The translations under genes were made by a program, and so were the position numbers. Shown one piece after another: positions 23,326 to 26,942 of a stretch of DNA of 64,000 nt. The notes under the pieces were generated by a model, which was not told the DNA's origin, ran no database searches, and was given only the letters and a program-made list of their open reading frames with translations. The stretch lies in assembly GCF_058153355.1 (NCBI RefSeq), contig NZ_CM177019.1; one strand, given 5' to 3'. Positions within the stretch are counted from its first letter, which is position 1; the number at the start of each line of letters is the position of its first letter.

Positions 23326-24690
23326 ATGAACGATTATAAAATGACGCCAGGTGAGCGGCGCGCGACCTGGGGTTTAGGGACCGTATTTTCATTGCGCATG
23401 CTGGGCATGTTTATGGTACTGCCGGTTCTAACTACGTACGGTATGGCACTGCAAGGTGCCAGTGAAGCATTAATCGGTATTGCCATTGGTATTTATGGCC
23501 TGACTCAGGCCGTTTTTCAGATTCCGTTTGGCCTGCTCTCAGACCGTATTGGTCGCAAACCATTAATTGTCGGCGGGCTGGCGGTGTTTGCTGCCGGTAG
23601 TGTTATCGCTGCGCTTTCCGACTCAATCTGGGGAATTATTCTGGGCCGGGCGTTACAAGGTTCTGGAGCGATTGCCGCTGCCGTTATGGCGCTACTTTCT
23701 GATCTCACGCGCGAACAAAACCGCACCAACGCGATGGCGTTTATCGGCGTGAGTTTTGGTATTACCTTCGCCATTGCGATGGTACTTGGCCCTATCATCA
23801 CTCACAAACTTGGACTGCACGCGCTGTTCTGGATGATCGCTATTCTGGCAACAACCGGCATTGCGTTGACCATTTGGGTGGTGCCCAACAGCAGCACGCA
23901 CGTACTTAATCGTGAGTCCGGGATGGTGAAAGGCAGTTTCAGCAAAGTGCTGGCAGAACCGCGACTGCTGAAACTCAACTTCGGCATTATGTGTCTGCAC
24001 ATGCTGCTGATGTCGACGTTTGTTGCCCTGCCCGGACAGTTGGCTGATGCGGGGTTCCCGGCGGCTGAGCACTGGAAGGTCTATCTGGCGACGATGTTAA
24101 TCGCCTTTGGCTCGGTTGTGCCTTTCATTATCTACGCGGAAGTTAAGCGCAAAATGAAGCAAGTCTTTGTCTTCTGCGTCGGGCTGATCGTGGTTGCGGA
24201 AATTGTGTTGTGGAACGCACAAACGCAGTTCTGGCAACTGGTGGTCGGCGTGCAGCTATTCTTTGTGGCGTTTAATTTGATGGAAGCCCTCCTCCCCTCG
24301 CTTATCAGTAAAGAGTCGCCAGCCGGTTACAAAGGCACGGCGATGGGCGTTTACTCCACCAGCCAGTTTCTTGGTGTGGCCATTGGCGGTTCGCTGGGTG
24401 GCTGGATTGACGGCATGTTTGACGGTCAGGGCGTATTTCTCGCTGGCGCAATGCTGGCCGCAGTGTGGCTGGCAGTCGCCAGCACCATGAAAGAACCGCC
24501 GTATGTCAGCAGTTTGCGCATTGAAATCCCATCGGACATTGCCGCAAACGAGACGTTAAAAGTGCGTTTGCTGGAAACTGCGGGTGTCAAAGAAGTGTTG
24601 ATTGCAGAAGAAGAACATTCGGCTTACGTGAAAATCGACAGCAAAGTGACGAATCGCTTTGAAGTTGAACAGGCAATTCGTCAGGCATAA
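23326..24690 (+). CDS. yajR: MFS transporter YajR
   Basis: ORF 23320-24690; conserved start MNDYKMTPGERRATWGLG; 12-TM MFS with soluble C-terminal domain. Confidence 0.93.
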   Translation: MNDYKMTPGERRATWGLGTVFSLRMLGMFMVLPVLTTYGMALQGASEALIGIAIGIYGLTQAVFQIPFGLLSDRIGRKPLIVGGLAVFAAGSVIAALSDSIWGIILGRALQGSGAIAAAVMALLSDLTREQNRTNAMAFIGVSFGITFAIAMVLGPIITHKLGLHALFWMIAILATTGIALTIWVVPNSSTHVLNRESGMVKGSFSKVLAEPRLLKLNFGIMCLHMLLMSTFVALPGQLADAGFPAAEHWKVYLATMLIAFGSVVPFIIYAEVKRKMKQVFVFCVGLIVVAEIVLWNAQTQFWQLVVGVQLFFVAFNLMEALLPSLISKESPAGYKGTAMGVYSTSQFLGVAIGGSLGGWIDGMFDGQGVFLAGAMLAAVWLAVASTMKEPPYVSSLRIEIPSDIAANETLKVRLLETAGVKEVLIAEEEHSAYVKIDSKVTNRFEVEQAIRQA

Positions 24691-24726
24691 AAAACGAGGC
24701 GAATTGCCTGTTGCGCTACGCTTTTC

Positions 24727-24818: not shown

Positions 24819-25310
24819 TTAATCGCGGAAGTTTTTGAACTGGAACGGCTGACCCAGATCGCCACCACGTACCATCGCCATGACAGCCTGCAAATCATCA
24901 CGAGATTTGCCCGTCACACGGATCTCATCGCCCTGAATTTGCGCCTGCACTTTCAGTTTGCTGTCTTTGATCATCTTGACGATTTTCTTCTGGGTCGCGC
25001 TTTCAATGCCCTGTTTCAGTTTCGCTTCCACAAACCAGGTTTTACCGCTATGAACGATATTTTCCGGTACATCCAGCGAACTGCCTTCAATGCCGCGCTT
25101 CAGCAGCTTGGCACGCAGAATATCCAGCAACTGATTGACCTGGAAGTCGGACTCGCTCAACACTTTGATGGTTTTGCTGGCGTCGTTCAGCTCAAATGAG
25201 GCTTCAACGTTACGGAAGTCAAAACGGGACTCCACTTCGCGGCTCGCGTTATCGACCGCGTTTCGAGCTTCCTGAAGATCAACTTCAGAGACAATATCGA
25301 AAGATGGCAT
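24819..25310 (-). CDS. yajQ: nucleotide-binding protein YajQ (UPF0234)
   Basis: ORF 24819-25478; conserved start [26 protein letters not shown] at ATG 25310 (minus). Confidence 0.9.
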
Positions 25311-25388
25311 CTTTTCCTCTCCCTTCATTTTTGATGCGAAGCATAATACCTGCAAAGTTAAATAACCGACAGTCCTGCACCAGGACGT

Positions 25389-25434
25389 ATCCCTTAATTG
25401 TGCATAGTCGCAACAGCATGCACAATTAAGGGAT
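25389..25434. promoter_or_regulatory. 17-bp perfect inverted repeat in the divergent yajQ/panE control region
   Basis: ATCCCTTAATTGTGCAT-(12 nt)-ATGCACAATTAAGGGAT. Confidence 0.5.
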
Positions 25435-25477
25435 AGCCTTATTGAACACCCGGAGTGGTTGCGGGTGAGGAGGAACA

Positions 25478-26942
<1,465 letters not shown>

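Follow-up and report, generated by a model that had tools for sequence, protein, structure and literature searches.

In E. coli, the 5' leaders of pnp, rnc and adhE carry hairpins that are cut by RNase III. The hairpin between the divergent genes yajQ and panE resembles them in having a long perfect double-stranded stem in a 5' leader, in being cleaved in vivo in an rnc-dependent manner and in vitro, and in altering the stability of the downstream mRNA. It is already known, as a published RNase III-cut RNA hairpin in the long yajQ leader. Gordon, Cameron and Pfleger (2017; mBio 8:e00128-17, PMC5371410) reported new RNase III sites that include "intergenic panE-yajQ, 444573"; there, the rnc mutant yielded 96 reads and the wild type 2-3. 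In their hands purified RNase III cut T7 transcripts of both the panE and the yajQ sense, with ends located by 5' RACE, and the half-life of yajQ mRNA was ~6 min in the wild type and ~3 min in the rnc mutant. They noted that transcription of either strand gives the same hairpin, and they suggested that a stabilizing 5' hairpin is left after cleavage; their in vivo RNA-seq was unstranded. Unlike the pnp leader, where cleavage destabilizes, cleavage at yajQ stabilizes the message, and, unlike the known RNase III leaders, the yajQ leader begins in the divergent neighbor gene, so that the same RNA also forms a duplex with panE mRNA.

The second group of related systems comprises the double-stranded RNAs (dsRNAs) formed where divergent transcripts overlap, and the 5' region of panE is present in two such datasets. 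Lybecker et al. (2014) described MS-115, a "divergent" dsRNA at 443638-443836, and Huang et al. (2020), using p19 capture of RNase III products, found cluster 46 at the 5' end of panE, which was equated with MS-115. The latter study gave a divergent overlap of 142 nt (443641-443783; these positions, like those of MS-115, are in the older K-12 numbering), with small dsRNAs at 443643-665, 443700-728, 443738-760 and 443755-776. These represent an intermolecular duplex beside the palindrome, whereas the palindrome gives the same leader an additional, intramolecular substrate. A third class, the bidirectional promoters described by Warman et al. from the Grainger laboratory, is similar in its DNA symmetry, in the ability of RNA polymerase to bind in either orientation and in its divergent starts; the likeness extends to the expectation that the two binding events should be mutually exclusive.

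What the present analysis adds to this picture is the transcript that bears the hairpin, the coincidence of the palindrome arms with the starts of panE and of a distal yajQ transcript, and the recent origin of the element. The reading that we favor, with a probability of about 0.75, is that, in the region that controls yajQ and panE in Escherichia, a lineage-restricted insertion of ~50 bp acts both as an RNase III-cut RNA hairpin and as a pair of mirror-image promoters.

A perfect inverted repeat between two gene starts

The window, i.e., the whole 64,000-nt stretch of DNA analyzed, was related to K-12 through the ATG codons of panE (444515) and yajQ (444683) in NC_000913.3, such that window position = 25310 + (444683 - K-12 position). 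Coordinates in the older numbering (U00096.2, marked "old" below) equal the new coordinates minus 776 at yajQ/panE. MG1655 is identical to the window over the whole repeat, and the published RNase III position, 444573, corresponds to window 25420, inside the right arm. The locus (25300-25490) was present at an identity of at least 95% in 5424 of 5426 complete E. coli genomes, where the genes are annotated as yajQ and panE. The features of the spacer and its flanking genes are as follows.

24819-25310, minus strand: yajQ coding sequence, with its ATG at 25310
25372-25386, minus strand: small hairpin GTCCTG-cac-CAGGAC, +5 to +20 of the yajQ P2 transcript
25388-25405, no strand: left arm of the inverted repeat, TATCCCTTAATTGTGCAT
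25406-25417, no strand: 12-nt spacer or loop, agtcgcaacagc; as RNA, two further G-C pairs are possible inside
25418-25435, no strand: right arm, ATGCACAATTAAGGGATA
25478-26389, plus strand: panE coding sequence, with its ATG at 25478

On the plus strand the order is GTCCTG (25372-25377)-cac-CAGGAC (25381-25386), then gt, then TATCCCTTAATTGTGCAT-agtcgcaacagc-ATGCACAATTAAGGGATA. The first-pass annotation of this DNA had described a perfect inverted repeat with a 12-nt spacer and 17-nt arms; the repeat and its spacer are as described, with arms of 18 nt each (25388-25405 and 25418-25435) that are 100% complementary. Its start coordinate of 25366 was set a few bases ahead of the small repeat, which begins at 25372, while the repeat itself stands, and it had correctly placed the element in the region between yajQ (ATG 25310, minus strand) and panE (ATG 25478, plus strand), a spacer of 167 bp between two divergent gene starts. 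The right end of the large repeat lies 42 nt before the panE ATG, and the repeat is 78-125 nt from the yajQ ATG. The palindrome is centered on 25411.5, and the centers of its arms are 30 bp apart.

A search of the 64 kb for the arm 18-mer, allowing up to three mismatches, found only two places, both of them the arms, where 0.07 were expected. No perfect hairpin repeat in the window is longer than the palindrome; the runner-up has arms of 13 nt, and 30 block shuffles gave arms of 8-13 nt. Chance does not explain the repeat. When the 75-nt region was compared by blastn with the 5426 E. coli genomes, there was one locus per genome among 5424 genomes, the two places detected being the two strands of the palindrome.

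Folded as RNA, the 48-nt unit gave -26.3 kcal/mol on the plus strand and -26.9 on the minus strand (z-scores -8.6 and -7.7, respectively). On either strand the stem consists of 18 perfect pairs plus the two G-C pairs in the loop, which corresponds to the dsRNA of about two turns (~20 bp) that RNase III recognizes. Rfam covariance models gave chance-level matches only (E ≥ 2.4), none of them over the repeat. An intrinsic terminator was considered and rejected; the scan found no terminator-like site, and there is no T run 3' of either arm. An internal duplication of the yajQ leader was also considered, but the 16/21 match between 25317-25337 and 25416-25436 was judged to be about what chance gives in a 300-nt region.

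Two other repeats in the vicinity deserve mention. A 6-bp hairpin (25447-25452 and 25462-25467) abuts the panE Shine-Dalgarno sequence, in the arrangement CACCCG-N9-CGGGTG-AGGAGG. Among 80 related loci, which were fetched through PanE, 41 carry CACCTG/CAGGTG, four carry the doubly changed CACCCG/CGGGTG, as does E. coli, and five have a G.U intermediate; the hairpin looks like a conserved panE leader stem-loop with a compensatory change. A 13-bp perfect inverted repeat (24668-24680 and 24700-24712) separates yajR from yajQ, whose 3' ends converge, and the 3' end of the yajQ unit mapped by SMRT-Cappable-seq (445326, window 24667) falls just past it; this repeat is probably a bidirectional terminator shared by yajR and yajQ.

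Within Escherichia the element hardly varies. The segment 25384-25439 was identical in 5351 of the 5424 E. coli genomes, while single-nucleotide polymorphisms at 25351 and 25376 are common in that species. E. whittamii has a G>A change at 25410, in the loop, and E. albertii shows no changes in the 36 arm positions versus four in ~119 flanking positions. Sequences within Escherichia have diverged too little to prove selection on the perfect symmetry. The small repeat, which in the long yajQ leader immediately follows the RNase III hairpin on its 3' side, gives no clear strand signal, because two of its changes point in opposite directions. The common T>C change at 25376 weakens the repeat as DNA and keeps it, as a G.U pair, in yajQ-sense RNA only, while the E. 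albertii change at 25386 has the opposite strand effect. In one strain, E. coli 13TMH22 (locus L082), a copy of IS1203 (IS3 family) sits inside the right arm, at the equivalent of ~25427, where it separates panE from its proposed palindrome promoter.

Mapped starts and the transcript carrying the hairpin

Published maps of transcription starts, together with the sequence, give the following features.

25335/6, minus strand: yajQ proximal start P1; SMRT-Cappable-seq 444657, forward, and Cappable-seq 443882 (old)
25335-25348, minus strand: yajQ P1 promoter, -10 TATTAT (25348-25343)
25390/1, minus strand: yajQ distal start P2; SMRT-Cappable-seq 444602, forward, and Cappable-seq (Ettwiller et al., 2016) 443827 (old)
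25397-25402, minus strand: putative yajQ P2 -10, CACAAT, in the left arm
25420-25425, minus strand: putative yajQ P2 -35, TTGTGC, in the right arm
25398-25403, plus strand: putative panE -35, TTGTGC, in the left arm; from the sequence and the start at 25433/4, below the consensus-scan threshold
25421-25426, plus strand: putative panE -10, CACAAT, in the right arm, after a 17-nt spacer
25433/4, plus strand: panE-yajL start; SMRT-Cappable-seq (Yan et al., 2018) 444560, reverse, and 443783 (old) in a table of divergent transcription units
25434-25576, no strand: 142 nt over which the panE transcript and the long yajQ transcript overlap, recovered as RNase III-dependent dsRNA (cluster 46/MS-115)
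25576-25589, minus strand: yajQ-sense promoter P3, inside and antisense to panE, -10 TACAAT (25589-25584), start at 25576/7

The first-pass annotation had offered a structured 5' leader as one of its two suggestions, with transcription start data as the means of seeing whether the palindrome is transcribed. Both the published RNase III cleavage and the start and dsRNA maps support this suggestion, since they place the hairpin within a long transcribed yajQ leader whose start lies inside panE, at ~25577 and antisense to it. The P3 start was recorded by Cappable-seq at 443640 (old), i.e., window 25577, 7 nt after TACAAT, and at 443641 (old) in the p19 and J2 dsRNA tables. Its strength is comparable with that of the other two yajQ-sense starts found by Cappable-seq (443827 and 443882). 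A public 5'-triphosphate start at 25576/7 on the minus strand is thus accompanied by dsRNA capture that reaches the hairpin. Among the mapped yajQ-sense starts P3 alone lies upstream of the hairpin, which identifies the P3 leader as the source of hairpin RNA; the panE and P2 transcripts do not contain the stem. Because the RNA-seq of Gordon et al. was unstranded, the strand that is cut in vivo has to be deduced from the start and dsRNA data, and from these the P3 leader is the natural in vivo substrate of the published cleavage. SMRT-Cappable-seq contains no full-length unit running from P3 to yajQ, which is expected if the transcript is cleaved and equally expected if it is rare. In its first 142 nt the P3 leader is complementary to panE mRNA, a stretch that takes in the panE ribosome-binding site, and the small dsRNAs cover the panE start codon. 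The box of the proximal yajQ promoter, GCATAATACC, is conserved across the Enterobacteriaceae.

The two remaining starts coincide with the arms of the palindrome, a point that the first-pass annotation had overlooked. The panE start at 25433 and the yajQ P2 start at 25390 are exact mirror images about 25411.5, at the two edges of the palindrome. Each arm carries TTGTGCAT, so that either strand reads TTGTGC-17 nt-CACAAT, and both starts lie 7 nt after CACAAT, as expected of a primary 5' end ~7 nt past a -10 element with A2 and T6. Escherichia and Citrobacter do not differ in the ATTGT/ACAAT cores. A consensus promoter scan of 25150-25650 returned no sites, the hexamers matching at 3/6 and 4/6 positions, and the promoter assignment therefore rests on the published start positions and not on motif strength; we found no mutagenesis of the hexamers, or in vitro transcription from them, in the literature searched. 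From the mapped starts and the sequence, we infer two sigma-70 promoters within the palindrome, divergent and overlapping. Since each -10 element overlays the opposite -35, the two RNA polymerase sites overlap almost completely, and the two promoters should compete. This arrangement differs from the bidirectional promoters of the Warman type, a class to which we do not assign it; there the -10 elements are shared or overlap and the starts are 10, 18 or 23 bp apart, whereas the palindrome starts are 42-43 bp apart and its -10 elements, 18 bp apart, do not overlap each other, each overlapping instead the -35 of the other promoter. A geometry of -10 over opposite -35, with starts 42 bp apart, is not described for bacterial bidirectional promoters.

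It could be argued that the palindrome works as RNA only, and that the starts at its edges are not promoter products at all, being technical or processing 5' ends at the base of a stable hairpin. Both 5' ends do fall exactly at the stem base, where reverse transcription or nucleases could stop, and the hexamers are weak and the promoter scan was empty. However, both start-mapping methods enrich 5'-triphosphate ends, and Cappable-seq ligates its adaptor to the RNA 5' end. The distal yajQ start (443827) was enriched about as much as the proximal one, and a third dataset places the start of the panE unit at 443783. On each strand the start lies at the canonical distance of 7 nt from CACAAT. Furthermore, 444560 is the only panE-yajL start found by SMRT-Cappable-seq (Yan et al., 2018), and, with the ancestral -10 destroyed in E. 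coli (see below), panE must start elsewhere than it once did. We consider an RNA-only role to be unlikely.

Distribution and history of the element

The first-pass annotation had proposed looking for conservation across the Enterobacteriaceae, and here the outcome was divided; the repeat is perfect in Escherichia, imperfect in the Citrobacter freundii complex and missing from most others, an absence that the first-pass annotation had not noticed. Among the 80 related loci the perfect 18-bp repeat occurs in Escherichia only (E. coli, E. whittamii and E. albertii). Salmonella enterica arizonae, C. koseri, C. sedlakii, C. amalonaticus, Enterobacter, Lelliottia, Klebsiella and others lack the element, and spacers free of it measure 113-125 bp in Salmonella, C. 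koseri, C. amalonaticus and Enterobacter, and 120-145 bp in Klebsiella and other genera. A TA lies on each side of the insertion (G-TA-[TCCC...GGGA]-TA-GCC), and the empty site in Salmonella reads T-TAGCGCC, which is compatible with insertion at a TA.

The site now occupied in E. coli by the small hairpin is that of the ancestral panE -10. In element-free genomes it reads GCGCTATACT, a good -10, where Escherichia reads GTCCTGCACC; the hexamer TATACT is kept everywhere except in Escherichia, where it has become TGCACC. Because this -10, to the left of the insertion, has decayed, panE would now depend on the palindrome promoter. The C. freundii complex, with a spacer of 174 bp, has kept TATACT and has a homologous insertion of ~60 bp right after it, the arms of which are only ~70% complementary as DNA. 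As RNA, the Citrobacter segments gave -22.7 to -32.5 kcal/mol in the panE sense versus -6.9 to -21.7 in the yajQ sense. For the consensus hairpin of a 12-sequence alignment, 98.5% of cells were paired on the panE-sense strand versus 84.3% on the other, all 29 asymmetric cells being G.U on the panE-sense strand. All of the seven variable stem pairs stay paired on that strand, by G.U wobble or compensatory changes; one pair changes from G-C to A-U between genera, and a further two each show one compensatory variant (C-G or U-A). The Citrobacter element thus has the appearance of an RNA hairpin that heads the panE message. Since this hairpin is conserved in the panE sense and not in the yajQ sense, the Escherichia arrangement would be derived and may be partly incidental.

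This history bears on a second alternative, that the element is a neutral relic, i.e., a small mobile or duplicated palindromic insertion that template switching between its arms made perfect in the ancestor of Escherichia, its cleavage and its starts being by-products without a selected function. In keeping with this, the element is restricted to a lineage, has TA on both sides and faces an empty site in Salmonella; other insertions have occurred at the same point (a 149-nt repeat in one of the related loci, L070, and more sequence in Kluyvera and Raoultella); and the divergence within Escherichia is insufficient to demonstrate constraint. However, the bias in pairing in the C. freundii complex, with every variable pair kept, is a signature of selection on RNA structure, the element holds the only mapped panE start in E. 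coli, deletion of rnc halves the half-life of yajQ mRNA, and the element is virtually invariant in the 5424 genomes when SNPs close by, at 25351 and 25376, are common. We regard a neutral relic as unlikely, on a par with a role confined to RNA.

The small palindromic repeats of enterobacteria (REP/BIME and MITE-like) are comparable with the element in being intergenic and palindromic, with an apparent TA insertion and a spacer that accepts other repeats elsewhere, and differ from it in that the palindrome is AT-rich and present in a single copy per genome. The first-pass annotation was right that it does not look like a REP unit, and we rejected membership of the REP/BIME family; the element lies between gene starts, whereas REP units are G+C-rich imperfect palindromes of ~35 nt in many copies, usually 3' of genes. 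A multi-copy or mobile element was rejected on the same blastn result of one locus per genome in E. coli.

The 149-nt repeat in L070 lies at the same point as the palindrome, after the panE -10, and its ends (TATCCCAGTAGGCGTAATTGT... and ...TAATGGGATAGGCTCTTA) resemble the palindrome arms. Kinship was not supported, as Smith-Waterman comparison against shuffled sequences gave p values of ~0.04-0.5 and the similarity to the E. coli or Citrobacter element is not significant; the resemblance of the ends may be treated as an unproven lead. A search with nhmmer, using a profile built on 34 copies that a metagenome scan had recovered, detected the repeat in L070 alone among 81 spacers, and not at the locus in the window. 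The termini of this repeat can pair, and its core (GGAGAAACCGGAGCGTAC...GTACGTGAGGATTTCGAGCAC) is highly conserved. It occurs in a median of five copies per E. coli genome, for example in the glrK-qseG spacer of MG1655 (L085:3517-3666), and the copy in L070 lies at 1287-1435. Its core is also found in soil and marine metagenome contigs with quite different flanks. It was unannotated in the records examined, with only a sub-threshold match to Rfam sX9.

Lineage-specific insertions are concentrated immediately downstream of the panE -10, with spacers ranging from 113 to 337 bp (loci L024, L045, L047, L055, L059, L060 and L063-L073), and unrelated inserts are found there in Raoultella, Kluyvera, Intestinirhabdus and others. 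At the other end of the spacer, an inverted repeat of 7-10 bp, GCGTTGCA-taatacc-TGCAACGC, straddles the proximal yajQ -10 (TATTAT, minus strand) in Klebsiella, Kluyvera, Raoultella and Pseudocitrobacter (loci L058-L080). It corresponds to 25333-25358 in the window and is degenerate in Escherichia and Citrobacter (GCGAAGCATAATACCTGCAAAG); it may be an operator or leader stem that was lost in the Escherichia/Citrobacter lineage.

A proposed dual role and its significance

A more ambitious proposal is that the perfect symmetry is itself functional. The palindrome would then be a compact switch in which the panE and yajQ P2 promoters are mutually exclusive, read-through from P3 yields RNase III-sensitive RNA, and a cruciform, extruded under the negative supercoiling of divergent transcription, hides both promoters. 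If true, such a switch would tie expression of the pantothenate/CoA branch to yajQ through promoter competition and DNA topology, and we consider it very unlikely.

The other suggestion of the first-pass annotation, a site for a dimeric regulator, was not borne out. An operator for a dimeric or tetrameric transcription factor serving the divergent genes would have NtrC as its candidate, for which an in vitro genomic SELEX (gSELEX) peak of modest intensity (41%) is centered on 443846 (old), i.e., ~25371, where the small hairpin contains a perfect NtrC half-site (TGCACCA, 25376-25382), and the GTGCA and TGCAC motifs in the arms resemble NtrC half-sites. We rate this the least probable of the alternatives, because no known operator is present in complete form, the element containing isolated half-sites and not the full 17-bp NtrC box (TGCACCA-N3-TGGTGCA), arm centers 30 bp apart fit a simple dimer poorly, a perfect 18-bp arm far exceeds what a half-site needs, gSELEX has a resolution of hundreds of base pairs with no reports of in vivo binding or regulation for this spacer, and most Enterobacteriaceae have the same two genes without the element.

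At the level of RNA, events at the locus follow from published work. Transcription from P3, inside panE at ~25577 on the minus strand, produces a yajQ-sense transcript that passes through the palindrome, whose RNA folds into a perfect stem of 18-20 bp and is cleaved by RNase III. Processing makes the yajQ mRNA about twice as stable, and downstream of its new 5' region comes the small GUCCUG/CAGGAC stem-loop. In the part of the P3 transcript that precedes the palindrome, 142 nt pair with the 5' end of panE mRNA, and this duplex is also cut by RNase III. At the level of DNA, where we rely on mapped starts and sequence, the rightward arrangement would fire at 25433/4, giving panE-yajL, and its mirror image would fire leftward at 25390/1, giving yajQ P2. 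In the history of Escherichia the element would have become a perfect palindrome, the old -10 (TATACT) would have decayed, and the panE start would have moved to the far edge of the insertion.

Beyond annotation the importance of this is small, the RNase III target that stabilizes yajQ mRNA having already been cataloged, and the palindrome opens no long-standing question. It offers a neat, small example of promoter turnover through an inserted palindrome, in which one sequence serves as both a DNA and an RNA signal.
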